Positions 7,941 through 61,386 of a stretch of DNA of 64,000 bases are shown piece after piece. The notes beneath the pieces are model-generated. The model had not been told where the DNA came from, did no database searches, and was given only the letters and a program-made list of their open reading frames with translations. The DNA comes from an uncultured Chitinophaga sp. (GTDB lineage Bacteria; Planctomycetota; Phycisphaerae; Phycisphaerales; SM1A02). Both the position numbers and the translations under genes were made by a program. The stretch is taken from NCBI GenBank assembly GCA_964440815.1, contig CAYTYU010000001.1:5646-69645 (forward strand). Reading direction: 5' to 3'. Position 1 is the first letter of the stretch. Each line of letters opens with the position of its first letter.

Positions 7941-8665
7941 GATCCGGAGGCGGAATGCGACTCGCGGACGCCTGCTGACGCAGGCAACGCGCGCACGGCG
8001 GCACGCACGGCGTCCAGTTCCTCGGTGGTGCCGTGGACGAAGAGCATGCCCGACTCGCGGTGCAGGCGCATGCGGAACTCCGGCGACCGCATGCCGGGCG
8101 CGAGTCCCGTGTCGATGGCGCGGATGACCGCGTCCTGGCTGGCCTCGGCCGCGGCGCGGTCGGTGGCGTCCGCCGGGACCGCAGGCAGCCGGAACAGTGC
8201 CACCGGCGACTCGACTTCGTGCGCAGTGCCGGGCTCGGCCGGCCTCACGTGCGCCTTGATCTGCATCGACTCGGAGCGTCCCCCGGCAAGCAGGACGTGG
8301 ACGGGCTTCACGAGCTCGACGCCGGGCTTGGTGCCGGGGTCGAGGGTGACGTCGACGGTGAAGGACGCGCCGGGCGCGATCGGGCCCTTCGGCGGATCGG
8401 AGACCTTGGTGCAGCCGCAGCCGGCCTTGATGGCCTCGACGGTGATCGGGGCGTCGCTTGCGTTGGTGATGGTGAGCGTGCCCTTGCCGGGCGTGCCGAT
8501 CACCAGCTCACCGAGCTCGAGCGTGGCGGGCGAGAACTTGAGGACCGGCGCGGTGGCCACCTGGCCGGCCTGTGCGCTCGGTGCGGCGGCGAGGGGCGCA
8601 GGCGCGGCCGCGAGCAGGGCGGGGAGGACGGCGATCGGCAGGGCGGTGGTCCGGATCATTTGCAT
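7937..8665 (-). CDS. DUF1573 domain-containing secreted protein
   Basis: Real start MQMIRTTALPIAVLPALLAAAPA (ATG 8665) within track ORF 7937..9925. Signal peptide; DUF1573 hallmark LTITNASDAPITVEAIKAGCGCTKV. The C-terminal ~100 aa are of unknown type. Confidence 0.7.
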   Translation of the reverse strand: MQMIRTTALPIAVLPALLAAAPAPLAAAPSAQAGQVATAPVLKFSPATLELGELVIGTPGKGTLTITNASDAPITVEAIKAGCGCTKVSDPPKGPIAPGASFTVDVTLDPGTKPGVELVKPVHVLLAGGRSESMQIKAHVRPAEPGTAHEVESPVALFRLPAVPADATDRAAAEASQDAVIRAIDTGLAPGMRSPEFRMRLHRESGMLFVHGTTEELDAVRAAVRALPASAGVRESHSASGS

Positions 8666-8839
8666 GGATGGCTCCGTGGGAAGTGTCGACGATGGCGGCA
8701 CGTGCGTGCCCCGCATCAAGAACGGAGCAGGGGCGGGGAGTGCGTCGCGCGGGTGTGGAATCCGTCGATATTTGCCCAGGCCCTCCCCCCCATTGGGGGG
8801 CTTTGGGTTGATGCGTGGGCCCGGTACCGTGGAGTCCGG

Positions 8840-17485: not shown

Positions 17486-18109
17486 TCACGCCCGGTCCGG
17501 CGCACCGCCGCCATCCGCGGGCCGGCTGCGCAGCAGCCACCATCCACCGAGTGCGATGCCGATGGCACTCAGGAGCCACATCGGCGGCAGGTAGGCGTGG
17601 CTGGCGGTCATGTTGAGGCCGCGGCACCAGCCCATGCAGAGCACGTGGCAGAGCAGCACGGCGCTCGCGGCGAGCGACAGGCGCCATCGCTCGCGCGGCG
17701 TCCAATTCGGACGGAGCAGGAGGAACACCGTCGCCGCGGCCAGCCCGCCGAACATGAAGACGAGCTCGCCGGCGGTCGACAGGCGCGGCGCCGCGGCCGG
17801 ATCGGCGGGTGGCGCGAAGAACTCCTTGAAGTACGCGGGGTCCAGGATGGCGAGCGACATCGGCACGTGCCAGACTGCGCCGAACACCCCGGCACGGAAC
17901 CACGTCGCGGGGTCGGTGCCCCCGGCGCGCCCCCGCATGCGGCGCAGCGCCGCCAGGAAGCCGAGCGCCATGCACAGGACCGCGGCCATCGCCACCGCCT
18001 TGTTCACGATGAACACCGGGATGTTGCCGGCATTCCTCGGGGCGAACGCCACGTAGCGGATGACCGCGTACACGACGCTGGCGGCGTAGAGGGCGACGAT
18101 CCCGCGCAT
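17486..18109 (-). CDS. hypothetical integral membrane protein (about 5-6 TM, His residues within helices)
   Basis: ORF with clear TM periodicity; I recognised no family. It lies 10 nt downstream of the kinase gene and 40 nt upstream of the OprB gene on the same strand. Confidence 0.5.
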   Translation of the reverse strand: MRGIVALYAASVVYAVIRYVAFAPRNAGNIPVFIVNKAVAMAAVLCMALGFLAALRRMRGRAGGTDPATWFRAGVFGAVWHVPMSLAILDPAYFKEFFAPPADPAAAPRLSTAGELVFMFGGLAAATVFLLLRPNWTPRERWRLSLAASAVLLCHVLCMGWCRGLNMTASHAYLPPMWLLSAIGIALGGWWLLRSRPADGGGAPDRA

Positions 18110-18119
18110 GGCGGGAAGG

Positions 18120-19715
18120 CTAGCGCGGGGCGGGGTCGGCGAGCATCCGCGTCAGCACCGCCGCCGCGGCATCGTCGAGCCATCCCGGCCGATCCTCGCT
18201 CGTGAGCTGCATGCGGTGGGCCGACGGGACCTCGTCGGGCGCTTCGCGTTCCGCGCGCAGGCGGTCGTGGACGGCGAGGTCGGCGTCAGAGATGCGAGTT
18301 GGATCTGCCGCGCGGCGCGCCATGCGTGACTCGATCGTTCGGCGGTCGGCATCGACGTCGACCAGGATCCACGGCACGCCGCGCGCGGCGGCGGCCGCGA
18401 TCAGCGGTGCGCGCTGCGCCCGCGTGCGCTGCGAGGCGTCGACGATGACGGTGCGTTCGGCTCCGGCGACCATGCCCGCGAGCGCGCGGTAGGTCGCATC
18501 GGTCGCGCTGGTGGCGTACGCCCCGGCATCCGCGCGGTCGGTGGGGGCGACGCCATGCAACGCCTTGCGGACGAGGTCGCTCGAATGGACCGCGGCGCGC
18601 ATGGCGCGCGCGAGATGCGCGGCCAGCGTGCTCTTGCCGGTGGCCGGCAGGCCCATGACCAGCACGGTGGCGGGTTCGAGGGCATAGCCCGCCGCAAGGA
18701 GCGCGTACGCGCGCACCTTGGCGGCGATGATCGGCAGGTCGGCGGCCGCCGTCTCCGGCTGGTGCAGGCGGATCGACTCCGTCATCGCTCGCACGATGGC
18801 GTAGTGCATCCGGAAGTAGCGGAAGAGCTCGTCGATGCCGCGCTCCCCGGCGGCGTCCGCGTAGGCGGCCAGGAACGACTCCGCCAGATCAGGACGGCCG
18901 AAGCGATCGAGGTCCATCGCCAGGAACGACGGATCCATCGCCCGGTCCGCGCAGCGATACGCGTCCTCGAACTCCAGGCAGTCGTATGCCTCGATGCGGC
19001 CGTCGACCATGCATGCGTTGGCCGCCTGCAGGTCGCCGTGCCCGTCGCGCACGCGGCCGTCGCGCCGTCGCGCCTCGAGCGTCGGGGCGATGCGGTCGAG
19101 CCATGCGCGCGCGGTGCGGTCGAGCGCGCCGACGAAGGCGGCATCGAGCGGCGGATCGAGCCCGGGCGTCGGGTTCGCGGCGTGTTCGGCGAGCCTGCGG
19201 AGGCAGTCGTCCTGACGGGCACGCACCACGTCGAGCGCCCCATGGCGCCGGACGTCCGGGCCGGCGGCGGCATGCGCGTGGAAATCGGCCAGGCGCCTCG
19301 CGAAGTCGCGCAGGTGGCGTTCGGTCACCCCGCCTGCGGGAACCAGGCGGTCGAGCATGCCGCCGGCAGGCAGGCGGCGCATCTCGACCAGCCACTCGAT
19401 CACCTGCGCGCCCTCCGCAGGCTCGCGAACGACTCGGATCCGATCTCCCTCGCGAACGACCGCCGCAAGCCCGCGGTAGATCCCCGGCACCATCCGTCGG
19501 TTGAGCCGCAGCTCGCGCTCGCAGTCGGCGCGACGGCGTTCGAGGGTCGAGAAGTCGAGGAACCCGAGGTCGACCGGCTTCTTCGCCTTCCACGCGGTGT
19601 CGCCCACCAGGAAGACGACGGAGGCGTGGGTCTGCGCCACGTCGACCGATGCCCCCACGGCATCCGGGAACGCGCCCGGATCGCGCAGCCGGTCGACCAG
19701 TTCCTTCGGATCCAC
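18120..19715 (-). CDS. bifunctional aminoglycoside-phosphotransferase-like / P-loop ATP-binding protein
   Basis: The N-terminal APH-type kinase fold has the catalytic GHGDLQAANACM. The C-terminal P-loop kinase has Walker A VMGLPATGKSTLA. Confidence 0.75.
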   Translation of the reverse strand: MDPKELVDRLRDPGAFPDAVGASVDVAQTHASVVFLVGDTAWKAKKPVDLGFLDFSTLERRRADCERELRLNRRMVPGIYRGLAAVVREGDRIRVVREPAEGAQVIEWLVEMRRLPAGGMLDRLVPAGGVTERHLRDFARRLADFHAHAAAGPDVRRHGALDVVRARQDDCLRRLAEHAANPTPGLDPPLDAAFVGALDRTARAWLDRIAPTLEARRRDGRVRDGHGDLQAANACMVDGRIEAYDCLEFEDAYRCADRAMDPSFLAMDLDRFGRPDLAESFLAAYADAAGERGIDELFRYFRMHYAIVRAMTESIRLHQPETAAADLPIIAAKVRAYALLAAGYALEPATVLVMGLPATGKSTLAAHLARAMRAAVHSSDLVRKALHGVAPTDRADAGAYATSATDATYRALAGMVAGAERTVIVDASQRTRAQRAPLIAAAAARGVPWILVDVDADRRTIESRMARRAADPTRISDADLAVHDRLRAEREAPDEVPSAHRMQLTSEDRPGWLDDAAAAVLTRMLADPAPR

Positions 19716-48689: not shown

Positions 48690-50978
48690 TCAGCGGCGGG
48701 TCCCCGCGGCGACGGCCGGGGGCGCGACCTGCGCGGCCACCGACGCCCCGTCGAGGAACTCCACGCGGCCGGTGGCGACGTCGTACATGGCGCCCACGAT
48801 GGCGATCTCGCCGTTGGCGACCATCGACGCGAGCGTCGGGCTGTTGTCGACGATCCACTTCATCATGTTGCGCACGTTGATCGCGGCCACGCGGTCGACG
48901 AACTCGGGGTTCGAGGCGTCGCGGCGGTCCTTCGTCAGGCGCTCCATGTGCACGGCCTCGGAGATCGGCTGGGTGATCGACCCGAGGTTCGTCAGGCCGG
49001 TCTCCTTCACCGGGTCCACGCCGCGGGCGACGAAGTCGCACGTGGCCTTCACCGCGCCGCAGCGGGTGTGGCCGAGCACCAGGATGAGCTTCGCGCCCGC
49101 CACGCGGCAGGCGAACTCCAGGCTGCCGAGGGCCTTGGGGCTCGCGACGTTGCCGGCGAGGCGCACGCTGAAGATGTCGCCGATCCCCAGGTCGAAGAGG
49201 AGCTCGGCGGGGGCGCGCGAGTCGATGCAGCTCAGCACCGCGGCCATCGGGTGCTGGCCCGCGGCGGTGGCATCCACCTGCCGCACGAGGTCGCGCTGCA
49301 GCCGGCGGCCCGACGAGAAGCGCTCGTTGCCCTCCCTGAGGAGCGCGAGCACCTTGCCCGGCGTGAGCGCCGCCTGCACCTCGCGGGTGCTGACGTCGAC
49401 GTACTGCACGGTGTCCTTCAGCGGGTAGCGGTCCTGGAAGCCGAGCAGGCTCAGCCTCACGCCGCGGGCGGGGGCCGTCTCCCTGGCGTATTCGTGGATC
49501 GTCGTGAGGATGTCCGGGTCGACGAAGTCGCAGGTGCGCGCGTCGATCAGCACGTGGTCCCCGGGCTGGAACTCCCCGAGCGTCAGGTTCAGGCGCGCGC
49601 GGTTCAGGAAGGTCGACTGGCTCGGCAGCTCGATGCGGTGCACGAGGCCGCCCACGTGGTCCTCCTTGATCACGCGGATGCCGCGGTCGATGTTGCTCCA
49701 CATGATGAAGGCCAGGCTGGTGCCCAGGCCGATGAGCACGCCCACCAGGAGGTCGGTGAAGACGATCGCCAGCACCGTGACCGCGAAGGGGATGAACTGC
49801 GCCTTGCCCTCGGCCCACATCGACCGGACGAGCTTCGGGCTTGCCAGCTTGAATCCGGTCACCACCAGCACGGCCGCCAGCGCGGAGAGCGGGATGCGGT
49901 TGAGGAGCCCGGGGAGCAGCGCCACGCTCCCGAGCAGCAGCACGCCGTGGAAGATCGCCGAGCGCTTGGTGCGCGATCCGGCGTTCACGTTCACGGAGCT
50001 GCGGATGATCACCGAGGTCATCGGCAGGCCGCCGACCATGCCGGCGGCCATGTTGCCCACACCCTGCGCCAGAAGCTCGCGGTTCTGCGGCGTCCAGCGG
50101 CGCTGGGGGTCGAGGCGGTCGGTCGCCTCGATGTTGAGGAGGGTCTCGAGCGACGCGACGATCGCGAGGGTCACGGCGGCCAGGTAGATCGCCGGGTCCG
50201 CGGCGCGCGAGAAGTCGGGCATGCGCAGCAGGTCGCCCCAGGCAAAGCCCTCGCCGCCGATCACCGGCACCGACACGAGGTGCGAGGCATCGATGGCCCA
50301 GGCAGACCCGTTCGAGCGCATCAGCTCGCTCATCAGCGTGCCGGCCACCACCGCCACCAGCGGCCCCGGCACCACCGACTGCTTGAGGAACTTGATCCGG
50401 TCCCACGCCATCAGGAGAAGGAGCGAGGCCGCACCGACCGCGAGCGCGCCCGGCACGAACGCCCGGGCCGCCTCGACGAGGTCCGTGAAGGTGTTGCCGC
50501 CGGTGGCGCTGGCGAAGCTCATCTCGCCCTCGTAGTCCTTGTCGTAGCCGACGAGGTGCGGCACCTGCTTCAGGATCAGCAGCACGCCGATGGCGGCGAG
50601 CAGGCCCTTGATCACGTTGGTGGGGAAGTAGTTGGCGAGGAAGCCGGCCTTGAACGCGCCGAAGGCCACCTGCAGGCCGCCGGCGATGAGCACGGCCAGC
50701 AGGAACGCCTCGAAGGAGCCGAGCGAGGTGATCTGCGCCAGCACCACCGCGGCCAGGCCGGCCGCCGGGCCGCTCACGCTGACGTGCGAGCCGCTCAGGA
50801 TGCCCACCACGATGCCGCCGATGACGCCCGAGATGAGGCCGGAGAGGAGCGGCGCGCCCGAGGCGAGCGCGATGCCCAGGCAGAGCGGCAGCGCAACGAG
50901 GAACACGACGAGGCCGGCGACCATGTCGCGGGCGAAGTCATTGCCGGAGGGCTGGGCGGGGAGGGCGGCGGTCTTCAT
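48690..50978 (-). CDS. SulP-family anion transporter fused to STAS domain and beta-class carbonic anhydrase
   Basis: Start MKTAALPAQPSGNDFARDMVAG within ORF 48690..51035. The SulP N-terminus is VVFLVALPLCLGIALASGAP. The C-terminal beta-CA motifs are LSCIDSRAPAE and VLGHTRCGAVKA. Confidence 0.85.
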   Translation of the reverse strand: MKTAALPAQPSGNDFARDMVAGLVVFLVALPLCLGIALASGAPLLSGLISGVIGGIVVGILSGSHVSVSGPAAGLAAVVLAQITSLGSFEAFLLAVLIAGGLQVAFGAFKAGFLANYFPTNVIKGLLAAIGVLLILKQVPHLVGYDKDYEGEMSFASATGGNTFTDLVEAARAFVPGALAVGAASLLLLMAWDRIKFLKQSVVPGPLVAVVAGTLMSELMRSNGSAWAIDASHLVSVPVIGGEGFAWGDLLRMPDFSRAADPAIYLAAVTLAIVASLETLLNIEATDRLDPQRRWTPQNRELLAQGVGNMAAGMVGGLPMTSVIIRSSVNVNAGSRTKRSAIFHGVLLLGSVALLPGLLNRIPLSALAAVLVVTGFKLASPKLVRSMWAEGKAQFIPFAVTVLAIVFTDLLVGVLIGLGTSLAFIMWSNIDRGIRVIKEDHVGGLVHRIELPSQSTFLNRARLNLTLGEFQPGDHVLIDARTCDFVDPDILTTIHEYARETAPARGVRLSLLGFQDRYPLKDTVQYVDVSTREVQAALTPGKVLALLREGNERFSSGRRLQRDLVRQVDATAAGQHPMAAVLSCIDSRAPAELLFDLGIGDIFSVRLAGNVASPKALGSLEFACRVAGAKLILVLGHTRCGAVKATCDFVARGVDPVKETGLTNLGSITQPISEAVHMERLTKDRRDASNPEFVDRVAAINVRNMMKWIVDNSPTLASMVANGEIAIVGAMYDVATGRVEFLDGASVAAQVAPPAVAAGTRR

Positions 50979-51126
50979 GTGGGGATCTTCGTCGATGGTG
51001 GCCGCACGCGCGCGGAGCCCGGAATATACGACCAAGGTTTCGTGATTCTATACTCGTAAATTTGTCCGGAAACCACTCCGGCCGGGCCGATCCGGCCCGT
51101 TGAAACCCTAGGATTGCAAGGCTCCG

Positions 51127-53310
51127 ATGGCCGAGGCCATTCCGAACGATTTTGGCGCCCCAAACGGCGAGGAAAGGGCGCTTTCCTCGGCGACGGTGGC
51201 CCTCTTGGTGCATCTGGCCCGCGGTGCCGGCACCGACTTCCGGTCCCAGGACGCCGGGGCGTCGATGGCCTCCTCGGCCGGCCAGGAGCCGCTCGAACGG
51301 CTGCGGCTGGCCGCGGCCGAGATGGGGCTCGAGGCAAGCCCGTACCGCCTGAGCGTCGCCGACGCAGTCTGGCTCGCCGACGACGCGCTGCCGCTCGTGG
51401 CGTGGTCATCCACGCGGAGGGCCTGGGTGGCCATCACCCGTCACGGCATGCTCCGTGCGCGGGCCTGGACCTCGGACCTGCCCGAGGAACTGCCGCGCCC
51501 GATGTCGCGCCGCGCGCTGGTCGAGTTCCTGGGCGCCGCGGATGCCGAGTCGCCGATCGACCTGGCGCTGGTCCGGCCGCAGCTTCCTGCCGACGGCCTG
51601 CGTGCCGGCGACGGCCACGACGCCTCGGGCCATGGCGACCACCATGATGGGTCGCCGCTGGCACGGATGGCCGGGCTCATGCGCCCCGAGATGCCCGAGG
51701 TGTGGTCGATCATCGCCTTCAGCGCGATCACCGGCCTCCTGTACCTGGCGCTGCCGCTTGCGGTCAACGCGTTCGTCAGCAACCTGTCCTTCGGCGCGAC
51801 GAGCGGCCCGTTCATCCAGGCGCTGCTGGCCATCGGCGGGGTGCTCCTCATCTGCCTGACGGTCGGCGCCGCGCTCCGCGCGGTGCAGTACGTGGTGGTC
51901 GAGGTGGTGCAGCGGCGCATCTTCGTGCGCGTGGCGGCCGACCTTGCGCACCGGCTGCCGAACGTTGACCTGGCCTCGCTCGACCGCGTGCACGCGCCCG
52001 AGCTGATGAACCGCTTCCTGGAGGTGATCACCGTCCAGAAGAGCGCGTCGATGATCCTGCTCACCGGCATCAACGTGGTGCTCGGCGCGGCCATCGGGCT
52101 GACGGTGCTGGCCTTCTACCACCCGTTCCTGCTCGCGTTCTCGGCGATGCTCCTGATCGCGATGGCGGCGATCGTCTTCGTCGGCGGGCGCGGCGCGCTG
52201 TCGACGAGCATCCGGGAATCGGTCCGCAAGTACCAGGTCGTCGACTGGCTCGAGGAACTCGCCCGCTACCCGAAGCTCTTCAAGGGCCCCGGCGGCGCGG
52301 GACTGGCCATGTCGCGGACCGATGACCTCGCGCGCGGCTACCTGCTGGCGCGGCGCGCGCACTTCCGGATCCTGATCCGGCAGATCGCGTCGCTCTTGGT
52401 GCTGGAGGTGGTGTCCTCCACGGCGCTCCTGGTCGGCGGCGGATGGCTCGTCCTCAACCAGCAGCTCACGCTCGGCCAGCTGGTCGCCGCGGAGATCATC
52501 GTCGCCGCGGTGGTGGCGTCGATCGCACGCCTCGGCAAGCAGTTCGAGGCGTGGTACGACGCGGTTGCCGCGGTCGACAAGCTGGGACTGCTCTCCGACC
52601 TTCGCCTCGAGCGCGCGGGCGGCGAGAGCCCCGCCGCATCGGCCGGCGGCATGGCGATCGACGTGCACGAGGTGACCCGCCCCCGCCCCGACGGAACTCC
52701 GGGGCTCGCGAGCTTCTCGATGCGCGCCGCGCCCGGCGAGCGCATCGCCGTGCTCGGCGCCCGCGGCAGCGGTACCACCGCGCTGCTCGAGGTGATCGCG
52801 GGCATGCGCCGGCCCGACGAAGGCCATGTCGCCCTCGACGGCGTCGACCTGCGCTCCTGGGACCTGCGCGCGCTGCACGAGCGCTCGATGCTGCTGAGTG
52901 CCAACGACCTGTTCGGCGGCACCATCGCCGACAACCTGCGCATGGGGCGCGGGTGGATCTCGGCCGCGGACCTGCAGGGAGCGCTTGAGCGCGTGGGCGT
53001 GGGCGCGGACGTGCGCGCGATGCCCGAGGCCGGCGAGGCGACGATCCTGACCGGCGGCCAGCCGCTCAGCGGGCGGCAACGGGCGAAGCTCGTGCTCGCG
53101 CGGGCGCTCCTGGCGCGGCCGTCGCTCCTCCTCGTCGACCAGCTGCTCGACGGCCTCGACGAGCAGTCGCGCGCCGACATGGCGTCCATCCTGCTCGACC
53201 CGCAGATGCCGTGGACGGTGGTGATCGCCACGCGCGACCCGCGCGTGGCCGCGCGCTTCCCGCGGACGGTGGACCTCGATGCGGCGAAGGGAGGGAGCGA
53301 CCGTGGGTAG
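51127..53310 (+). CDS. C39-like-domain ABC exporter (T1SS/bacteriocin-exporter architecture) with degenerate nucleotide-binding domain
   Basis: The N-terminal ~150 aa have the peptidase-C39-like layout without the catalytic Cys. A His/Asp linker (GHGDHHDG) and a 6-TM exporter domain follow. The NBD has Walker A GARGSGTT (Lys replaced by Thr), signature LSGRQ, Walker B LLLVDQ (Glu replaced by Gln) and H-loop VVIATRD (His replaced by Thr). Confidence 0.8.
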   Translation: MAEAIPNDFGAPNGEERALSSATVALLVHLARGAGTDFRSQDAGASMASSAGQEPLERLRLAAAEMGLEASPYRLSVADAVWLADDALPLVAWSSTRRAWVAITRHGMLRARAWTSDLPEELPRPMSRRALVEFLGAADAESPIDLALVRPQLPADGLRAGDGHDASGHGDHHDGSPLARMAGLMRPEMPEVWSIIAFSAITGLLYLALPLAVNAFVSNLSFGATSGPFIQALLAIGGVLLICLTVGAALRAVQYVVVEVVQRRIFVRVAADLAHRLPNVDLASLDRVHAPELMNRFLEVITVQKSASMILLTGINVVLGAAIGLTVLAFYHPFLLAFSAMLLIAMAAIVFVGGRGALSTSIRESVRKYQVVDWLEELARYPKLFKGPGGAGLAMSRTDDLARGYLLARRAHFRILIRQIASLLVLEVVSSTALLVGGGWLVLNQQLTLGQLVAAEIIVAAVVASIARLGKQFEAWYDAVAAVDKLGLLSDLRLERAGGESPAASAGGMAIDVHEVTRPRPDGTPGLASFSMRAAPGERIAVLGARGSGTTALLEVIAGMRRPDEGHVALDGVDLRSWDLRALHERSMLLSANDLFGGTIADNLRMGRGWISAADLQGALERVGVGADVRAMPEAGEATILTGGQPLSGRQRAKLVLARALLARPSLLLVDQLLDGLDEQSRADMASILLDPQMPWTVVIATRDPRVAARFPRTVDLDAAKGGSDRG

Positions 53311-54601
53311 CGGCCACTCCCTGAACCGGCGCGCGGGCGACGGCATCGTCGAGGTGCCGCTGCCGTCGCTTGCGCTCGCCGGCACCGGGCGCGGAACGCG
53401 CATCCTGGCGCGGGCGCTCGCCCTGGTTGCCCTGGCGGTGGTGCTCGGCATCGCGTTCCTGCCGTGGCAGCAGTCGGTGCAGGGCACCGGGCGCGTGATC
53501 GCGTTCAACCCGCTCGACCGGCGCGTCTCGATCGAGGCCCCGGTGAACGGGCGCGTGAAGAAGCTGCACGTGGTGGAGAACCAGCGCGTGCGCAAGGGCG
53601 ACCTGATCGTCGAGATCCAGGACAACGACCCGAACCTCATCGCGAACCTCCGCTCGCAGCACGACGCGGCGATCTCGCGCCGCGCCGCCGCGCAGCAGCG
53701 CATGGATGACCTCACGGCACAGATCGCCAACCAGGAGCTGGCCAAGCCCCAGGCAGTCGACCAGGCGCAGCAGCGGATCAATGCCGAGCAGTACCTCTTC
53801 GAGACCAACCAGCTCAACTTCAAGCGCATGCAGCAGCTGGTGACCACCGGCGACGTGTCGCAGCGCGACTACGAGCTCTCGAAGCTGGCCTACGACAGCT
53901 CGCGCGCGAACCTGGCGGCCGCGAAGGCGAGCCTGGAGCGCACCGCCCGCGAGTTCGACGCCGCGATCAGCGCCACGAAGGCCAGCCGCGGCACCGCCGA
54001 GGCCGACCGTGCGGCGGCCGACCGCGAGATCGCCTCGATCGACATCCAGATCAGCCAGAGCTCGCAGCAGGTGGTCGAGGCGCCGCGCGACGGCATCGTG
54101 ATGAGCGTCTCGGCGACCGAGGGCACCTACCTCAAGCCCGGCACGCCGATCTGCGTGGTGATCCCGGAGACCGAGGACCGCTTCGTCGAGGTGTGGGTCG
54201 ACGGCATGGACATGCCGCTCATCACGCCGCGGCAGCAGGGCCCCGGCGGCTCGGTCGTGCGCGGCAGCCTGGCGCGCCTGCAGTTCGAGGGCTGGCCGGC
54301 CATCCAGTTCGTCGGCTGGCCGAGCGTGGCGATCGGCACCTTCGGCGGCGAGGTCATCTCGATCGACGCCGCCGACGACGGCCGCGGGCGGTTCCGCATC
54401 ATCATCGCGCCCGAGCACCTGGGGGGCGACGAGGCGTGGCCGGGCACGCAGTTCCTGCGCCAGGGGGTGCGCGCCAACGCGTGGGTGCTGCTCAGGCAGG
54501 TGCCGCTCTGGTTCGAGCTCTGGCGCCAGCTGAACGGCTTCCCGCCGGTGGTGGCGGACAAGGCGCCGGACGCCAAGAAGATGAACGACGAGGAGGAGTG
54601 A
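53303..54601 (+). CDS. HlyD-family secretion (membrane fusion) protein
   Basis: GTG 53303 with GGGAGGGAG SD (ATG 53279 is an alternative). It has an N-terminal TM anchor, the lipoyl motif IEAPVNGRVKKLHVVENQRVRKGDLIVEI, a long coiled coil, then VVEAPRDGIVMSV. Confidence 0.8.
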   Translation: MGSGHSLNRRAGDGIVEVPLPSLALAGTGRGTRILARALALVALAVVLGIAFLPWQQSVQGTGRVIAFNPLDRRVSIEAPVNGRVKKLHVVENQRVRKGDLIVEIQDNDPNLIANLRSQHDAAISRRAAAQQRMDDLTAQIANQELAKPQAVDQAQQRINAEQYLFETNQLNFKRMQQLVTTGDVSQRDYELSKLAYDSSRANLAAAKASLERTAREFDAAISATKASRGTAEADRAAADREIASIDIQISQSSQQVVEAPRDGIVMSVSATEGTYLKPGTPICVVIPETEDRFVEVWVDGMDMPLITPRQQGPGGSVVRGSLARLQFEGWPAIQFVGWPSVAIGTFGGEVISIDAADDGRGRFRIIIAPEHLGGDEAWPGTQFLRQGVRANAWVLLRQVPLWFELWRQLNGFPPVVADKAPDAKKMNDEEE

Positions 54602-54629: not shown

Positions 54630-55442
54630 TCATCGGTACTGCGTGCGGACCAGTTCGACCGCCGAATCGTCGAAGCGGTCGTCGCGGCGCATCTGGCCGA
54701 AGAGCCCGAGGAGCTCGGCCTCCGTGAGGCGGCGCTTCTCCGGGCCCGAGACGTCGAGGTAGACCCGGCCCCGGTGCATGGCGACCAGCCGGTCGCCGAG
54801 CGTCGCCGCCTGCTGCATCGAGTGGGTCACCATGATGGTGGTGGAGCTCGACTTCGCCACCAGCCGCGTGGTGAGCCCGATGACCAGCTCCGCGCTGCGC
54901 GGGTCGAGCGCCGCGGTGTGCTCGTCGAGCAGGAGCACCGGCGGGTTCGTGAGCGTCGCCATCAGCAGCGTGATCGACTGGCGCTGGCCACCCGAGAGCA
55001 GGCCGATCGGGTCGTCGAGGCGGTGCTCAAGCCCGAGGCCGATCTGCGCCAGCAACTCGCGCCACTCGCCGCGGCGAGCGCCGCGAAGGAGCGGGGCGAG
55101 GGTGCGCCACCGGCCGCGCTTGGAGGCGAGCGCGAGGTTCTCCGCGACCGTGAGCCCCGGCGCCGTGCCGGCGAACGGGTCCTGGAAGACGCGGCCCACC
55201 AGGTGGGCGCGCCGGTGCTCGGGCCAGCGCGTGATGTCGCGGCCGTCGACCGAGATCGCGCCCGCGTCGAGCTCGAATGCGCCGCTCACGGCGCCCTGCA
55301 GCGTGCTCTTGCCGGATCCGTTGGTGCCGATCACGACGGTGAACGAGCCGGGCGCGAACTCGAGGGTCACGCCCGCGAGCGCGCGCACCTCGTTGGCGGT
55401 GCCGGGGTTGAAGGTCTTGCGGACCGCGTCAAGCCGCAGCAC
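54630..55442 (-). CDS. ABC transporter ATP-binding protein (COG1101-type, uptake system of unknown substrate)
   Basis: GTG 55442 with GGGGAGG SD. It has Walker A GTNGSGKST, signature LSGGQRQ, Walker B LLLDEHTAALD and H-loop MVTHS, all canonical. Confidence 0.85.
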   Translation of the reverse strand: MLRLDAVRKTFNPGTANEVRALAGVTLEFAPGSFTVVIGTNGSGKSTLQGAVSGAFELDAGAISVDGRDITRWPEHRRAHLVGRVFQDPFAGTAPGLTVAENLALASKRGRWRTLAPLLRGARRGEWRELLAQIGLGLEHRLDDPIGLLSGGQRQSITLLMATLTNPPVLLLDEHTAALDPRSAELVIGLTTRLVAKSSSTTIMVTHSMQQAATLGDRLVAMHRGRVYLDVSGPEKRRLTEAELLGLFGQMRRDDRFDDSAVELVRTQYR

Positions 55443-56364
55443 GGCCGCCTCCCCGCCTGCGCGCCATGGACTGGATCCACCCCGGGCCGACGATCGCGGC
55501 CAGCACCACCACGGCGGTGACGAGCTTGAGGTCGTTGGCGTCGAGTCCCATGCGGATCGCGATGGCGACCAGCAGCCGGAACAGCACCGCGCCCATGACC
55601 GCCCCGACCACCGCAAGCGTCACCGAGCGCACCGGCCCGACGAGCGTCTGGCCGAGGATCACGCTCGCCAGCCCGAGCACGATGACGCCGATCCCCATCT
55701 GTGCGTCGGCGAAGGCCTGCATCTGGGCGAAGAGCGAGCCGGAGAGCGCGACGAGGCCGTTGGACATCGCGAGTCCCAGGATCGTCATGCGGTCGGTGCT
55801 GGTGCCGAGCGCCCGCAGCATGCGGGCGTTGTCGCCGGTGGCGCGCATGGCGGCGCCGAGCTCGGTCTTCAGGAAGAGGGCAAGCAGCGTGGTGGTCACG
55901 GCGGCCGCCAGCAGCGCGGTCGCCAGCAGCCCGACGTCGCCGCTCGGCGCGGTGCGCCCGAGGATGCGCACCTCCGGTCCGAAGGCATCGCGCGCCGCGC
56001 GCTCGATGCCGGTGAAGACGGTGGCGGCATTGATGGGCAGGTTGCTCGCCCCCATCACCCGCAGGTTGACGGAGTAGAGCGCCGTCATCACCAGGATGCC
56101 GGCGAGCAGCGCGTTCACCTTGAAGCGGACGTGGATGACGCCCGTGACCGCTCCGGCCGCGAGGCCGCATGCGGCGCCCACCGCGGTCGCCGCGATCGGA
56201 CCATGCCCATCCTTCAGGAGCCGCGCGGTGACCGCCGCGCCGAGCGGGAAGGACCCGTCGGCCGTGATGTCCGGCATCTGGTAGACGCGGAACGACAGGA
56301 AGACCCCGAGCGCCAGGATCGCGAAGATCAGCCCGATGGCGAGCGTGGCGAGGAGCAGGCTCAC
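55429..56364 (-). CDS. ABC transporter permease (COG4120 / branched-chain-type permease fold)
   Basis: GTG 56364 (GGGAGG SD) overlaps the upstream stop (GTGA). The sequence VSLLLATLAIGLIFAILALGVFLSFRVYQMPDITADGSF.. is typical of this permease family. About 8-9 TM. Confidence 0.8.
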   Translation of the reverse strand: MSLLLATLAIGLIFAILALGVFLSFRVYQMPDITADGSFPLGAAVTARLLKDGHGPIAATAVGAACGLAAGAVTGVIHVRFKVNALLAGILVMTALYSVNLRVMGASNLPINAATVFTGIERAARDAFGPEVRILGRTAPSGDVGLLATALLAAAVTTTLLALFLKTELGAAMRATGDNARMLRALGTSTDRMTILGLAMSNGLVALSGSLFAQMQAFADAQMGIGVIVLGLASVILGQTLVGPVRSVTLAVVGAVMGAVLFRLLVAIAIRMGLDANDLKLVTAVVVLAAIVGPGWIQSMARRRGGGRAAA

Positions 56365-57497
56365 GCCGGGCCTCCCTCGGTGCGGAATGCCCAGAGCGAT
56401 CCGCGAACGAACGACGACTCGGTGCCGTCCGGCGCGCGCAAGGCGTGCATCACCGCGCGCAACGGCTGCTCGGCCAGGACCTGGCCGGCGGCGGTGACGG
56501 CACGTGCCTGCTGCGGCATCGGCCGATAGCCGGTGACCGCGACGTGCGCATGGAGGCACGGGCCGGCTGCGTCGCCGGATGCGAAGGCGACCGCGACCAT
56601 CGTCTCGCCGCGGTGCATCGGCTCGCCGGCGAAGCGGATCGCGCGGCGCAGTTCGTCGGGCGGCATGGCGCCGGGTGCCGCTGCCCAGAGATCCGGCGAG
56701 GACCGCGCCCACGCGCCGAAGGCACCCGCGCACTCGCCGCAGGCGACGAACGCGACCGGGCCGCCGAGGGCACGCACGAGTGCGCGCGCGATCGAGGAGA
56801 CCGTGACGGCGCCTGCGACCGTGCCTGCGCCCGCTGCCTCGAAGTGACCGTGCCAGGACGGCTCGGCATTCGCCACCAGCGCGTCCCGTGCCTGCACGGT
56901 GACGGTGCCGGCGTCGGTCGAGGCCATGCAGTCGGCGCGGGGCGCGTCGGCGGGCAGGACCACGGCCGTGCCGCCTGCCACCAGCCCGTCGCCGTAGAGG
57001 CCGGCTGCCGACGGCTCGTCGGGCGCAAGCGCCACGTGCCCGAGCGCCACGGCATGCGGACCGACTGCCACGCTGCCGCGCTGCACGCGCGCCAGCGGCG
57101 CCGGCACGTCGGCCGCGGCCGTGCGCTCGATCGAGCCGGACCAGCCGTCGCCGATCTCGCGCGACTCGCGCACCGTGGCCGGGCGCGCGGGCTCCGCGCG
57201 CAGCCCGAGCAGCGCGTCGAGCTTGGCCACGCGCAGCATGTCGCGCACGGGGTCGCTTGCCCCGACGATGACGAGCGTGCCGCCGACCGCGCGGAAGCGG
57301 GTGAGCGCGCGCAGGATGGTGCCGATCCCCACCGACGACACGAACGTCGTCTCGCGCATGTCGAGCTCGATGCGCGGTCGGCCCATGCGGATCGCGTCCT
57401 CGAGCGCCGCCGCGACCGACTCGCTCCAGGCGGCATCGAGCCGGCCGACGAGGGCCAGGCACGCGGCATGCGCGGCGTCGGTGCGTTCGATCCTCAC
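56361..57497 (-). CDS. STAS (SpoIIAA-like) domain protein with ~270-aa C-terminal domain of unknown type
   Basis: GTG 57497 overlaps the stop of the binding-protein gene (GTGA). The first ~100 aa, ..LVGRLDAAWSESVAAALEDAIRMGRPRIELDMRETTFVSSVGIGTILRALTRFRAVGGTLVIVGASDPVRDMLRVAKLD, match the anti-sigma-antagonist/STAS pattern. I do not recognise the rest. Confidence 0.6.
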   Translation of the reverse strand: MRIERTDAAHAACLALVGRLDAAWSESVAAALEDAIRMGRPRIELDMRETTFVSSVGIGTILRALTRFRAVGGTLVIVGASDPVRDMLRVAKLDALLGLRAEPARPATVRESREIGDGWSGSIERTAAADVPAPLARVQRGSVAVGPHAVALGHVALAPDEPSAAGLYGDGLVAGGTAVVLPADAPRADCMASTDAGTVTVQARDALVANAEPSWHGHFEAAGAGTVAGAVTVSSIARALVRALGGPVAFVACGECAGAFGAWARSSPDLWAAAPGAMPPDELRRAIRFAGEPMHRGETMVAVAFASGDAAGPCLHAHVAVTGYRPMPQQARAVTAAGQVLAEQPLRAVMHALRAPDGTESSFVRGSLWAFRTEGGPA

Positions 57498-59536
57498 GGC
57501 GCGGGGTCTCCCTCGCGGACCACGGTCGCTTCCTTGAGGATCTCGGGCGGGACCCGGATCCCGAAGCGCCGCAGGCGCTCCGGGTTCGCGTAGAGCACGG
57601 TGCGCTGCGTGTCGGCGAACGGGATGCCGGCGACCGCCTCGCCCGCGAGCACGCGCTTGACGAGCCGCGCGGAGACGCGCCCGACGTCCTCGAAGTCGCG
57701 TGCCACCGCAAACGTCGCGCCGGCGCGCATCGAGCCCGGCGTGAACGAGAACACGGGGATCCCCGCGCGGTCGGCCGCCCGGACGATGGTCGAGAAGCCC
57801 ATGCTCGACGCGTTGTCGCTGACCTGCGCCACCGCGTCGATGCCCTGCGTCACCAGGCCGTCGGCCGCCTCGGCAAGCTCCGTGGGCCGGTCCGCGCCTG
57901 CGGCGACGAGCTCGATGCCGGCGGCCGCAAGCGCCTTGCGCCACGATTCCTTGTTGTAGACGCTGTTGGCCTCGCCGGGCGCGAACACCGTGCCCACGCG
58001 CCGCACGCCCGGCATGGAGGCCTTCAGCACCTCGATCATGCGCGTCCAGTCGCCCTCGATCTGCGCGCCGGTGACGTTGGGCAGGTGGTCGGTCGCGCTG
58101 CGGCCGACGCCCGCCTCGATGCCCGACGCCACCAGCGAGAACACCACGGGCAGGTCCCCGATCCTGCGCGAGACCGCCTGCAGCGCGGGCGTCGTGAACG
58201 GGACGACCACGTCGGGCCGCTCCGCGGCGACTGCCGCGACGATGGTGCCGAGGGTGCCGATGTCGAGCTGCGCGTCGCGGAGCACGATGCGCGCGCCGAC
58301 GCCGTCACCGAGGCCGACGGCCTCCATCTCGGCGAGGAAGCCGCGGTAGGCGTCCTCGAAGTTCGGGGTCCGGCTGTAGGTGATTGCGGCGACCATGGGC
58401 AGGTGGCCGCTGGCCGTGCGCGTCGCCGCGCGTGCGGCGAGCGCCGCGAGCATCCGCGCCACCGCCGGGGGGACGTCGGAGCGCTCGACCGCCTGGGTGC
58501 GCGCGGCGCCGCCCTCGAGGATGCGCTCGGCCGCGCGCTCGAGATCCGCGGGTCGCCGCCATCCCGCGCCGAAGCCGTCGTAGTTGAGCCAGACGGCAAC
58601 GGGCACGAAGTTGTCGCAGGGAATGTCCCGCGGCGGCGTGCCCGCGAGCACCAGCTCGGCGATCGCGCCCGTCGACGTCCCCATGGCGGCGTAGTCCGCG
58701 CCGTAGTTGATTGCGGCGCCCAGCTCGGCCATCGCGGGGAAGTTGGTGATCACCGGCACGCCCGAGCGCCGGCAGCGCTCGATGACCGGCTTCGCGGCGG
58801 CGATCACGTTGGTGTCCGCGAGGATCCAGAAGCAGTCGATCCCGCGCGACAGGACGACGTCCGCGGCGGAGACCGCCTCGGTGACGTTCGCGCCGTTCGC
58901 CTCGACGAGCTCCATGCCGAGCTTGGCGCACACCTCGCGCCCGAGCTTCACCGACGCCTCGGCGTTCGGCTCGGCGGGGTTCCACACGCAGCCCACGCGG
59001 CGTGCGCCCGGCGCCGCCGCGTGCAGGGCGCCGAAGAGGAGCTCCGCCGGCTGCAGGGTGCCGAATCCCGCGACGTGCTCGGGCCGCGTCGAGCCCGGCG
59101 TCCACGGCCCGAGCGGCACGCCGATCCCGGGCGGCGACGCCACGAGCCCGAACACCTGCGGCACGCCCGTTCGGTTGGCGCGCATCACCGCCTGGGTGGC
59201 GGGCGTCGAGAGCGAGATCACCAGGTCGAAGGGCGGCGATGCGCCGCACGCCTGCGCGGCCATCTGGCCGAGGGTCCCGACGTCCCCCTCGGCGTTGAAG
59301 CGCTCGATCACCGTGCCGGCCGCGGCCGTGTATCCGGCGGTTTCGAGGCGTGCGACCAGCGCGTCGCGCGCGGTGCTCATCGCGTCGATCGAGCTGATCT
59401 GGACGATGGCGATGCGCTTCGCCTCCGTCCCGCCCGCCGCGGGACGCGCGCGCGAGCGATCCGTCAGGACGAGCACCGCCGAGGCGGCGGCGATCAGCAG
59501 GATCCCGAGGAGGAGTCGGCGCGCGGTGGCGAGCAT
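57494..59536 (-). CDS. ABC transporter substrate-binding protein, tandem duplication of the COG2984 (ABC_sub_bind) domain, N-terminal membrane anchor
   Basis: Two ~320-aa halves share the same layout (KRIAIVQISS..FDLVISLSTPATQAV..VPQVFGLVASP.. and PMVAAITYSR..PDVVVPFTTPALQAV..LPVVFSLVASG..). There is a single N-terminal hydrophobic anchor. Confidence 0.75.
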   Translation of the reverse strand: MLATARRLLLGILLIAAASAVLVLTDRSRARPAAGGTEAKRIAIVQISSIDAMSTARDALVARLETAGYTAAAGTVIERFNAEGDVGTLGQMAAQACGASPPFDLVISLSTPATQAVMRANRTGVPQVFGLVASPPGIGVPLGPWTPGSTRPEHVAGFGTLQPAELLFGALHAAAPGARRVGCVWNPAEPNAEASVKLGREVCAKLGMELVEANGANVTEAVSAADVVLSRGIDCFWILADTNVIAAAKPVIERCRRSGVPVITNFPAMAELGAAINYGADYAAMGTSTGAIAELVLAGTPPRDIPCDNFVPVAVWLNYDGFGAGWRRPADLERAAERILEGGAARTQAVERSDVPPAVARMLAALAARAATRTASGHLPMVAAITYSRTPNFEDAYRGFLAEMEAVGLGDGVGARIVLRDAQLDIGTLGTIVAAVAAERPDVVVPFTTPALQAVSRRIGDLPVVFSLVASGIEAGVGRSATDHLPNVTGAQIEGDWTRMIEVLKASMPGVRRVGTVFAPGEANSVYNKESWRKALAAAGIELVAAGADRPTELAEAADGLVTQGIDAVAQVSDNASSMGFSTIVRAADRAGIPVFSFTPGSMRAGATFAVARDFEDVGRVSARLVKRVLAGEAVAGIPFADTQRTVLYANPERLRRFGIRVPPEILKEATVVREGDPAP

Positions 59537-59552
59537 GCGTGTCGCCGGCCGG

Positions 59553-60941
59553 TCAGGTCACCGCGGGCAGCTCGAACCCCGCGCGGTAGGTGCGGCGCAC
59601 GATCGTGCGGTTCGCCTCGTCGTGGTTGGTGATCGACGCGGTGGAGCGGTCCCACCGCAGCTCCTGGCCCGGGAACCGCGCGGCGCGCACGCACAGGAGC
59701 CCGGCCTCGGCCATGCCGGCGGCGTACTGGAACGGCGACTGCACGAAGGCGTCGTCCTTGCCCATGATGCGGTTCACCCACGCGTGCCAGTGGTTGCGGC
59801 CGCGCACCTCGCCCTGTCCGGGGATCTGCCGCCAGTCGACGGAAACGCCGTCGATCCACACCTGCAGCTGGCCCTCGGGTTCCACGAGCAGGACGCCCCC
59901 CTCGCAGACGACGAGCGTGCCCATGCCCGGCCAGTCGCCGGCCGGCAGCCCGAGCGATGCGCGCGACGGCGCCTGGCCCTTGTCGCGGTAGTGGAGGACG
60001 AAGTCGCGCCGCGCGAAGCGGTCGCCCGACACCGGGTAGGTGAGCGTCGAGGAGACGTGCTGCGCGTGGTAGAAGTCGCTCGGCATCCGCGTGTGCGACA
60101 CCACCGCGATCGGCGACGGCAGGTTGTAGGCGAAGTACGGGACGTCGAGGAGGTGCGTGCACCAGTCACCGAGCTGCCCGGTGCCGTAGTCCCAGCTCGA
60201 GCGCCAGCGCAGGCCGACCAGTCCCTCGCGGTGCGGGGCGTCCTCGGCGGCGCCGAGCCAGAGCGGCCAGTCGACGTTCGCGGGCGGCGGCGTCGGGTCC
60301 TTCAGCCCGCCGTACCAGAAGTAGCCGTCGCCGCCGTCCGGCGGGCCGGCCACCCACACGTGCGCCTCGACCGCCTTGCCGAGCAGGCCGCGGCGCAGGA
60401 TGTCGACCGCGTGCTGGCGGCCGGGCGGGCCCATCCGCTGGTTGCCCACCTGCGTGACCAGGCGGGGCCGGGCGTTCGCGGCCGCGAGGATGGCGGGCAC
60501 CTCGGCAAGCTGCTGCACGAGCGGCTTCTGCCCGTAGACGTGCTTGCCCGCGCGCAGCGCCCACATCATGATCACCGCGTGGTTGTGGTCGGGCGTGCAC
60601 ACCACCACGCCGTCGAAGCGGTCGCCGTGTCGGTCGAACGCCTCCCGGAAGTCGCGGCAGGCGAACGCGTCGGGGTGCTCGGCCGACACCTGCGCGAGCG
60701 CATCCGAGTCGACGTCGCAGAAGCCCGTGAAGGCGACGTCCGGATGCTGCTTCAGCTCGTGCCGGTCGGCGCCGGCGATGCTGCCGCCCACGCCCACCTG
60801 CAGGAGCTGGAGCTTCTCCAGGCGCCCGGGGCGGGCACGGCGAGGCGCCGCGGCGGAGGCGACGCGGCCGAGCAGCGAATCCGCCGCCAGCCCGCCGGCG
60901 GCGAGCGCGGTGGCGGCGAGCATCGTGCGGCGGTCCATCAT
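59553..60941 (-). CDS. Gfo/Idh/MocA family oxidoreductase with twin-arginine signal
   Basis: TAT-like N-terminus MMDRRTMLAATALAAGGLA. The Rossmann part is LQVGVGGSIAG...VVVCTPDHNHAVI..ALRAGKHVYGQKP. Confidence 0.85.
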   Translation of the reverse strand: MMDRRTMLAATALAAGGLAADSLLGRVASAAAPRRARPGRLEKLQLLQVGVGGSIAGADRHELKQHPDVAFTGFCDVDSDALAQVSAEHPDAFACRDFREAFDRHGDRFDGVVVCTPDHNHAVIMMWALRAGKHVYGQKPLVQQLAEVPAILAAANARPRLVTQVGNQRMGPPGRQHAVDILRRGLLGKAVEAHVWVAGPPDGGDGYFWYGGLKDPTPPPANVDWPLWLGAAEDAPHREGLVGLRWRSSWDYGTGQLGDWCTHLLDVPYFAYNLPSPIAVVSHTRMPSDFYHAQHVSSTLTYPVSGDRFARRDFVLHYRDKGQAPSRASLGLPAGDWPGMGTLVVCEGGVLLVEPEGQLQVWIDGVSVDWRQIPGQGEVRGRNHWHAWVNRIMGKDDAFVQSPFQYAAGMAEAGLLCVRAARFPGQELRWDRSTASITNHDEANRTIVRRTYRAGFELPAVT

Positions 60942-60951
60942 CGGGACGGCG

Positions 60952-61386
60952 TCAGTCGTGCAGCTCGATGGCGACGATCTTGTCGCCCTGCTTGATCTTG
61001 TCCACCACCTCGACGTTCTCGATCACCTTGCCGAAGCAGGTGTGCTTGCGGTCGAGGTGCGCGGTGTTGTCGCGCGAGTGGCAGATGAAGAACTGGGAGC
61101 CGCCCGTGTCCTTGCCGGCATGGGCCATCGACAGCACGCCGCGGTCGTGGCGCTGGTTGCCGCCGGAGGTCTCGCAGGCGATGTGGTAGCCGGGGCCGCC
61201 GCTGCCGGTGCCCTTGGGGCAGCCGCCCTGGATCACGAAGTCCGGGATCACGCGGTGGAACGTGAGCCCGTTGTAGAAGCCCTTGGAGGCGAGGGTGCGG
61301 AAGTTGGCGACGGTGTTGGGCGCATCGGCGTCGTAGAACTCGACGACCATGTCGCCCTTGGCGGTCTTGATGGTGGCCTTGGACAT
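60952..61386 (-). CDS. cyclophilin-type peptidyl-prolyl cis-trans isomerase
   Basis: [36 protein letters not shown]...[18 protein letters not shown], the canonical cyclophilin core. Confidence 0.92.

Follow-up and report, generated by a model that had tools for sequence, protein, structure and literature searches.

A family of HlyB-like ABC half-transporters from Planctomycetota and Verrucomicrobiota with altered ATPase motifs and a membrane domain more conserved than the nucleotide-binding domain

In the window analysed here (64,000 nucleotides of contig CAYTYU010000001.1, assembly GCA_964440815.1; G+C 72%), one gene encodes a half-transporter built like the ATP-binding cassette (ABC) exporter HlyB, and the next gene on the same strand encodes an HlyD-type adaptor. 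Judged from the translation and its alignment to relatives, every nucleotide-contacting motif of the half-transporter is altered, the signature included. The substitutions are a family trait and not strain decay or an artefact, and the family reverses the usual pattern of ABC exporters in that the transmembrane domain (TMD) is more conserved than the nucleotide-binding domain (NBD). As a tentative explanation, to which we give somewhat less than an even chance, the protein would be a homodimeric exporter in which the NBD has a structural, gating or ligand-sensing role and transport is powered by something other than ATP hydrolysis. A screen of the window by G+C at third codon positions (GC3) flagged two same-direction genes, 51127-53310 (GC3 0.93) and 53279/53303-54601 (GC3 0.97). 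The open reading frame (ORF) of the half-transporter is backed by a database cluster with 100% identity and by hundreds of homologues, and the closest named homologues (86-88% identity) come from metagenome-assembled genomes of Phycisphaerales, Planctomycetota. The gene and its nucleotide-binding motifs lie as follows, with residue numbers of the encoded protein.

51127..53310, + strand: ABC-exporter-like half-transporter gene of 727 aa, with a C39-like domain (CLD), TMD and NBD (GC3 0.93, translation, Pfam ABC_tran at 60 bits, Foldseek matches to HlyB and PCAT1, 1508 homologues)
52672..52686, + strand: A-loop region VTRPR, in which the aromatic residue (Y520 in the family) is arginine, R520 (comparison with relatives)
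52756..52779, + strand: Walker A GARGSGTT, residues 544-551, with T550 at the lysine position (translation, calibration on relatives)
52888..52908, + strand: Q-loop region MLLSAND, residues 588-594, with S591 at the glutamine position, which is arginine in most relatives (the relative L079 has glutamine in this column)
53065..53079, + strand: signature LSGRQ, residues 647-651, with R650 for the second glycine of LSGGQ (alignment to relatives)
53125..53142, + strand: Walker B LLLVDQ, residues 667-672, with the aspartate kept (D671) and the catalytic glutamate changed to Q672 (alignment to relatives)
53218..53238, + strand: H-loop VVIATRD, residues 698-704, with R703 at the histidine position (relatives, spacing, gapless HMMER alignment to ABCB1 NBD2)

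The motif columns were calibrated on four distant syntenic members of the family, Tundrisphaera L079, Tautonia L082, L060 and L074, which have GxxGxGKST, LSxGQ, hhhhDE and T-H-[SD]; L079 additionally has the Q-loop glutamine. The canonical set of an ABC ATPase (A-loop aromatic, GxxGxGK[ST], Q-loop glutamine, LSGGQ, hhhhDE and H-loop histidine) is not found in the window protein. A first, sequence-only reading of this DNA had held that every catalytic motif is substituted, and the case turned out stronger than it claimed, as R520 of the A-loop and R650 of the signature belong to the list too. Its threonine for the Walker A lysine, its Q-loop without glutamine and its glutamine for the Walker B glutamate were borne out by the translation and the relatives. 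The signature, however, is not "nearly intact" as it had been described, as its second glycine, at the position of CFTR G551, is replaced by R650. The loss of the H-loop histidine also stands, but not its placement at T702: the histidine position is R703, because of the histidine-bearing relatives (T-H-S/D in L079, L060, L074 and L082) and the 32-residue spacing from the Walker B aspartate. The gapless HMMER alignment to ABCB1 NBD2 agrees with R703 and a gapped one would give T702, and neither residue is histidine. The window protein retains the P-loop glycines, T551, D671 and the D-loop, as well as the signature serine and glutamine.

The family to which these substitutions belong is large: 1508 matches were counted, species-representative genomes contain more than 589 loci, and at 50% identity at least 150 clusters score above 595 bits. 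Motif states were read in three sets of homologues: 119 sequences with identities from about 50% upwards, the orthologues from 80 loci of species-representative genomes, and 150 representatives of 50%-identity clusters, each with more than 595 bits to the family profile. Pooled, they give 346 distinct relatives, which come from Planctomycetota, Verrucomicrobiota and a few further phyla. None of the 119 closer homologues has the Walker A lysine (T, S, A or C instead), R703 is present in 108 of them and arginine at the Q-loop position in 109. The catalytic glutamate is kept in 99/119, and glutamine at this position is confined to the eight relatives closest to the window protein. Among the cluster representatives the Walker A lysine is present in 118/150, the catalytic glutamate in 45/150 (glycine in 64/150), the H-loop histidine in 26/150, the Q-loop glutamine in 7/150 and the second signature glycine in 65/150. 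All eight canonical residues occur together in 0/346 of the pooled relatives, and the second signature glycine is lost in 271/346. The canonical lysine, glutamate and histidine, which the sequence-only reading expected in orthologues if the changes were decay or artefact of one strain, do occur together in some distant ones, but these are a minority of 21/346, and the changes are not strain-specific decay.

State changes were counted by Fitch parsimony, as minimum numbers, on a neighbour-joining tree of the TMD. At least 14 changes were needed for the Walker A lysine, 39 for the catalytic glutamate, 25 for the H-loop histidine and 42 for the signature glycine, while D671, G566 and R659 changed 2-4 times and the TMD residues E364 and K368 not at all, being invariant in the 346 sequences. 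The lysine-less state is mainly one ancient clade of 198 sequences (Phycisphaerales, Verrucomicrobiota and others), outside which 13 sporadic losses are seen. This clade keeps an alternative set of residues, with R591 in 178 members, R703 in 174, E672 in 153 and R650 in 133, and the A-loop tyrosine is kept by half of the lysine-less members. The gain of R650 was considered as a compensation across the dimer interface for the loss of K550, and it was rejected: the association (133/212 vs 3/134) collapses to one ancient event on the tree. Three classes can be told apart in the family, namely near-canonical members, members with the lysine kept and the glutamate and histidine lost ("DG" type), and members that have lost the lysine and are rich in arginine. 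The window protein belongs to the last class and has changed further, from glutamate to Q672, from R591 to serine and by loss of the A-loop tyrosine.

In ABC exporters the NBD is normally the most conserved part. We compared the window gene by the NG86 method with three orthologues (86-88% amino-acid identity, dS 0.45-0.54) and obtained a dN/dS of 0.13-0.18 for the whole gene, 0.07-0.14 for the TMD, 0.12-0.19 for the N-terminal domain and 0.21-0.30 for the NBD. The check across orthologues that the sequence-only reading had asked for thus indicates purifying selection, and the NBD is clearly constrained, yet 2-3 times less than the TMD. Across the family, at least 90% conservation is reached at 65/325 positions of the TMD vs 14/227 of the NBD, and at matched TMD identity the NBD/TMD identity ratio is 0.72-0.84 in all three classes. 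The domains themselves were delimited with an AlphaFold2 (AF2) model.

51127..51600, + strand: N-terminal C39-like domain without cysteine, residues 1-158 (AF2 model of the domain alone with pLDDT 90.8, Foldseek)
51601..51654, + strand: cytoplasmic linker rich in histidine, aspartate and glycine, RAGDGHDASGHGDHHDGS, residues 159-176 (composition family-wide)
51655..52626, + strand: transmembrane domain of six helices, residues 177-500, the most conserved part (AF2 helices)
52627..53307, + strand: NBD fold with non-canonical motifs, residues 501-727 (pLDDT about 90 or higher)

The full-length model, built from 52 homologues, has a mean pLDDT of 79 (about 90 or higher in the NBD); it begins with an alpha/beta domain, followed by a disordered linker, six long transmembrane helices and the NBD. 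The best full-length Foldseek matches are HlyB (8dck, 7sgr; about 700-714 aligned columns) and PCAT1 (about 700 columns); ABCB10, TM287/288 and MsbA are matched as well, all five with E<=1e-17. Hidden Markov model matches to MsbA, CydC and LssB span residues ~180-705. As modelled, the half-transporter has the type IV (ABCB-like) ABC exporter fold. When the C39-like domain was modelled alone, its top Foldseek match was 3zua (the CLD of HlyB, TM-score 0.64-0.66) and then 3b79 (a Vibrio C39-like domain), followed by the peptidase domains of ComA and PCAT1. No Peptidase_C39 was found in the protein by Pfam sequence search, and the domain is seen by structure comparison only; residues 1-175 contain no cysteine. 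The HlyB-like architecture is confirmed at the fold level by these predictions, and the succession of a cysteine-less C39-like domain, six transmembrane helices and an NBD, as first read from the letters, is upheld by AF2 and Foldseek.

The linker lies between the C39-like domain and the first transmembrane helix. Its composition is kept in the family and its sequence is not, and near-canonical members have it too. Histidine makes up 14.9% of the ~23-residue linker vs 2.1% elsewhere; at least three histidines are present in the linker of 74% of 306 members, with up to 10 and with GH repeats. This suggests that the linker may bind metal or sense pH on the cytoplasmic side. The intact gene and the GHGDHHDG stretch of the linker were correctly read at the outset, as the ORF and the translation agree.

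The two proteins fall short of the curated models for described secretion systems. The ABC protein is below the cut-offs of the type I secretion system (T1SS) models TIGR01846 (93.8 vs 725.55 bits), TIGR01842 (112.5 vs 510.15) and TIGR03375 (159.8 vs 693.1) and of TIGR01193 for PCAT/bacteriocin exporters (63.8 vs 523.85 bits; no cysteine). No NCBIfam cut-off is reached by the window protein, nor by its near-canonical relative L079. The adaptor was called a canonical HlyD protein in the sequence-only reading, and this holds for the Pfam models of membrane-fusion proteins (MFPs), with scores above the gathering thresholds for HlyD_3 (50.4 vs 22.2 bits), HlyD_D23 (34.6 vs 30) and Biotin_lipoyl_2 (35.1 vs 29.8), but not for the T1SS HlyD model TIGR01843 (54.6 vs 208.65). 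Its best NCBIfam model is DevB, still under the cut-off (71.2 vs 129 bits). The adaptor and the genes and spacer next to the half-transporter are the following.

53303..54601, + strand: HlyD-type membrane-fusion adaptor gene, 432 aa from GTG 53303 (Pfam, synteny with the ABC gene)
48690..51035, - strand: SulP anion transporter fused to a beta-carbonic anhydrase (SulP-CA), divergent from the ABC gene (Pfam and NCBIfam)
51036..51126, no strand: 91-bp divergent promoter region common to the ABC gene and the SulP-CA gene (conserved blocks in three orthologous loci)

The longest ORF of the adaptor begins upstream, at ATG 53279, but its start is most likely GTG 53303. This start gives an 8-nt overlap with the ABC gene (stop codon TAG 53308-53310) and is preceded by the Shine-Dalgarno sequence GGAGGGAG at 53290-53297, and the identical overlap is seen in orthologues. 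The 8 nt reported earlier are right for the GTG start and not for the longest ORF. In the 91-bp spacer, the blocks GAATATACGACC, TTTCGTGATT, CGnAAATTT and AACCCTAGGATTG are kept in three orthologous loci at dS ~0.5, and they may be a shared operator or promoter.

An adaptor orthologue directly follows the ABC gene in 83/83 related loci with enough DNA, and a TolC-like outer-membrane factor (OMF) gene is next on the same strand in 62/69 loci, counting those with at least 1.5 kb past the adaptor. The seven loci without an adjoining OMF gene, mostly of the Phycisphaerales group, include the window, in whose 64 kb no OMF gene was found. One relative, P0226 (1202 aa), joins an ABC-like part (residues 5-725) to an adaptor (residues 805-1198, 39% identical to that of the window, E 2e-82), and it is either a natural ABC-adaptor fusion or a read-through of metagenome assembly. 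No second type-IV ABC exporter was detected within 10 kb in the 83 loci or in the 64-kb window, the only NBD matches of this partner search being unrelated ones of 47-62 bits in 3/83 loci. When candidates within the window were sought by tblastn with the whole protein, the TMD, the NBD and the CLD, only an importer NBD at 54.9-55.5 kb was matched. This importer ATPase (54630-55616) was rejected as a motor acting in trans, as the importer operon is absent from the relative L001. As first stated, no RTX or GG-leader substrate gene is adjacent, the flanks being the SulP-CA gene and an ABC importer, and clustering of the neighbours of 84 loci gave no conserved cargo gene. A beta-helix protein encoded immediately 5' of the ABC gene (L026, L036) was discarded as T1SS cargo, as it has an N-terminal Sec-type signal and is found in only 4 closely related loci.

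The recurrent neighbours are of another kind, namely SulP-beta-CA fusions, SbtA with a PII/SbtB-like gene, and DabA/DabB (Pfam 379-913 bits). In 16/83 loci, one or more SulP, SbtA or DabA genes were located within 10 kb, and these inorganic-carbon-linked loci belong to at least five separate lineages with varied arrangements. In L018 (6537-12817) the order sbtA-sbtB-ABC-MFP-OMF on one strand, with gaps of at most 12 nt, makes one apparent operon; dabB-dabA-ABC are on one strand in L072 (5436-15163), SulP-CA is directly 5' of the ABC gene on the same strand in L005, and it is adjacent and divergent in L053 as in the window. Inorganic-carbon uptake genes are rare in genomes, and because of this a real functional link of the module with them looks likely, with SulP-CA as a candidate associate. 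Some further arrangements were noted. In L030 (646-19959) the ABC-MFP-OMF module stands between two dabAB sets and a SulP-CA gene, and in L026 (568-17810) the operon is found amid inorganic-carbon uptake genes. A LysR regulator is divergent just upstream of the ABC gene in 11 loci, such as L026 (6329-7252, -), L030 (8992-9921, -), L043 (8809-9840, -) and 8 others; its best match is NhaR (187.5 bits, cut-off 219), which suggests control of the module by Na+, pH or carbon. Near the module of the Phycisphaerales-like L001 are two Na+/H+ exchanger genes with TrkA_N (8178-9983 and 17574-19208, both -), together with a Na/Pi cotransporter and an H-NOX/GAF-HD pair; here too, genes of ion homeostasis are clustered.

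It seems that a homodimer working without hydrolysis fits these data best, because the TMD is nearly frozen and the catalytic residues are labile while the NBD fold and the dimer-interface elements are conserved. The two genes would then account for the inner-membrane and the periplasmic component of an export system that spans the envelope and consists of ABC protein, membrane-fusion protein and outer-membrane factor, the outer-membrane partner being presumably encoded elsewhere in the genome of the window organism. The NBD would be retained as a folded domain in which selection for ATP hydrolysis does not maintain the catalytic residues, and the window protein, with the A-loop, Walker A, Q-loop, signature, catalytic glutamate and H-loop positions all replaced, is the extreme case in the family. 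The two NBDs of the homodimer would act as a dimerisation, gating or ligand-sensing module. The conserved TMD and the adaptor might then transport an ion or small solute, either along or against its gradient, with energy from the membrane potential or ion coupling, for which the change of CFTR to a channel could be a parallel of transport without ATP hydrolysis. In physiological terms the system probably serves ion, pH or inorganic-carbon homeostasis, as the genomic company of the module points in this direction and not to the export of toxins or bacteriocins. Motif states, family-wide distribution, purifying selection, synteny and folds are observed here; that the protein forms a homodimer and does not hydrolyse ATP, and which energy and substrate it uses, is inferred. 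Of the options named in the sequence-only reading, an ATP-independent conduit or regulator on an ABC scaffold agrees best with the pattern, and it too is reached by inference.

Several points weigh against this explanation. The C39-like domain leaves a protein or peptide substrate possible: the C39-like domain of HlyB handles an unfolded protein substrate, which would need energy input, and we know of no ion-conducting system with such a domain. A canonical partner elsewhere in the genome is possible, the partner search having covered the window and 10-kb flanks. The inorganic-carbon link concerns a minority of the loci, the 16/83 given above, many of them from related Verrucomicrobiaceae. Also, the P-loop glycines, S551, the Walker B aspartate, the signature serine and glutamine and the D-loop are conserved in the family, and the lysine-less clade keeps its fixed alternative set of R591, R650, R703 and E672. 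From the alignments, the retained and replacement residues suggest that some nucleotide or anion may still be bound and perhaps turned over.

This last point leads to the main rival, a remodelled but working nucleotide site, which we find rather unlikely on the whole. Arginines (R520, R546, R650 and R703) would replace the lysine, the histidine and the aromatic residue, and the site would bind ATP, another NTP or an anionic ligand, either as a slow ATPase or as a switch that only binds its ligand and in this way drives or gates alternating access; in the sub-clade with glutamine for glutamate the change would give a long-lived nucleotide-bound dimer. The conservation of the replacement residues in the 198-member clade, the purifying selection on the NBD and the retained P-loop glycines, S551, D671, signature serine and glutamine and D-loop all speak for it, as does the A-loop tyrosine in half of the lysine-less members. 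However, the window protein is without the A-loop tyrosine, the Walker A lysine, the catalytic glutamate, the Q-loop glutamine and the H-loop histidine all together, and we know of no precedent for an ABC ATPase without the Walker A lysine. The pairing of K550 loss with R650 gain, being one ancient event, is not evidence of compensation.

Alternatively, the protein could be the degenerate half of a heterodimeric exporter, whose canonical partner elsewhere in the genome would provide the one consensus ATP site that powers transport. To our knowledge, the genes of bacterial heterodimers are almost always adjacent and the known degenerate halves keep the Walker A lysine, and neither is the case here, where a second type-IV exporter is missing from the 64-kb window and from within 10 kb of the 83 loci. 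Moreover, the module is a self-contained operon that moves as a unit, in some cases including an OMF gene of its own, and P0226 is a single-chain ABC-adaptor fusion. Heterodimers with one degenerate site are common (review PMC7756269), and the window protein retains the signature serine and glutamine and the D-loop. The preserved signature, which had been thought to fit a heterodimer half and which such a half must lend to the consensus site, is non-canonical here and in most relatives. We therefore disfavour the heterodimer and consider it improbable.

A more specific non-hydrolytic reading, still more doubtful, would be an envelope-spanning ion or anion conduit independent of ATP hydrolysis, with a vestigial NBD and the histidine-rich pH- or metal-sensing linker as its gate, working together with bicarbonate/CO2 uptake by SulP-CA, SbtA/B or DabA/B. 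If true, the conduit would parallel in bacteria the partnership of CFTR with SLC26 and would supply a component missing from inorganic-carbon and pH homeostasis in the Planctomycetota-Verrucomicrobiota-Chlamydiota (PVC) group. Finally, the recently inactivated system of the sequence-only reading, or a sequencing artefact, is excluded: the sub-clade does carry two changes beyond the wider clade (glutamate to Q672 and arginine to S591), but the ORF and the overlapping adaptor gene are intact, the same residues recur in 8 clusters of 81-88% identity, the lysine-less state spans phyla in the 198-member clade, dN/dS is 0.13-0.18 at dS ~0.5 and synteny with the adaptor is universal.

On the 3' side of the adaptor, in convergent orientation, the window has the ABC importer operon (Pfam, NCBIfam). 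The ORF of its substrate-binding protein (57494-59536, -; 680 aa) has its best match to PF04392 over residues ~390-672, in 2 stretches, and the long N-terminal part may reflect a wrongly called start, a duplication or a fusion. Between the importer NBD and this ORF (55616-57494) no ORF passed the GC3 filter, and a permease gene is expected there, as in L084. In L001, a 66%-identical relative, the adaptor is directly followed by PPIase and monomeric IDH genes (window 54630-61386 vs L001 13585-16319), whereas in the window ~6.3 kb with the ABC importer and a GFO/IDH/MocA oxidoreductase separates them. This difference indicates an insertion or deletion that distinguishes related genomes.

Transport driven by ATP is what defines an ABC exporter. 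In this family the usual pattern of conservation is inverted, with a near-frozen membrane domain and drifting lysine, glutamate, histidine and glutamine residues, while the adaptor and outer-membrane partners are kept. Should these proteins be homodimers, no earlier bacterial system of the tripartite ABC type would have been shown to work without a competent ATP site. This bears directly on the long-standing question of how binding of ATP and its hydrolysis each contribute to the transport cycle of ABC proteins, for which the near-canonical, the lysine-kept/glutamate-lost and the lysine-lost/arginine-rich members offer a graded natural series for experiments. The recurring link with bicarbonate/CO2 uptake genes suggests that the carbon and pH physiology of abundant freshwater Verrucomicrobia and Planctomycetes has a component so far unrecognised.

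Among known systems, HlyB/HlyD/TolC of E. coli haemolysin (7sgr, 8dck, 3zua) has the same domain order of a cysteine-less CLD, a six-helix TMD and an NBD. It is the best structural match for the whole chain and for the N-terminal domain, and like it the family has a co-transcribed adaptor and, in most relatives, an OMF gene. The window protein differs in being far under the cut-offs of HlyB, PrtD and LssB and in having all catalytic NBD residues replaced; here no RTX or other substrate gene is nearby, the adaptor is below the T1SS HlyD model, and the TMD instead of the NBD is conserved. PCAT1 and the bacteriocin exporters are alike in overall fold, and the N-terminal domain resembles the peptidase domains of ComA and PCAT1, but the window protein is without the catalytic cysteine and the GG-leader peptide gene and has a degenerate NBD. 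CFTR is an ATP-gated anion/bicarbonate channel, functionally paired with SLC26/SulP transporters. Its likeness, by analogy only, lies in the type-IV ABC scaffold, in transport proposed not to be powered by ATP hydrolysis and in the place of the window gene beside a SulP (SLC26-family)-CA gene; CFTR, however, keeps one active site, needs ATP binding and works without an adaptor or outer-membrane partner. The catalytic glutamate, the H-loop histidine and the Q-loop are likewise altered in TM287/288, TmrAB, TAP and site 1 of CFTR, and the idea of a non-hydrolytic site that has a structural or regulatory part to play is the same (PMC7756269). Unlike the half-transporter, which has no adjacent partner and a degenerate signature too, these keep the Walker A lysine, bind ATP tightly and have one consensus site, with the canonical half next door or in the same chain. 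In the full-text literature searched no description of the family was found, and the nearest idea is the different HlyD/Peptidase_M50/SecA_DEAD/GAF module of PVC bacteria (Kamneva et al. 2015, PMC4452313), an adaptor-based, T1SS-like system of Planctomycetes and Verrucomicrobia that does without the canonical ABC ATPase. It lacks any protein of ABC fold, its proposed motor is a SecA-type ATPase, and it does not occur in the 64-kb window. Compared with all of these, the novelty is a tripartite ABC-MFP-OMF system with family-wide loss of ATPase residues, which is large, undescribed and centred on Planctomycetota and Verrucomicrobiota.

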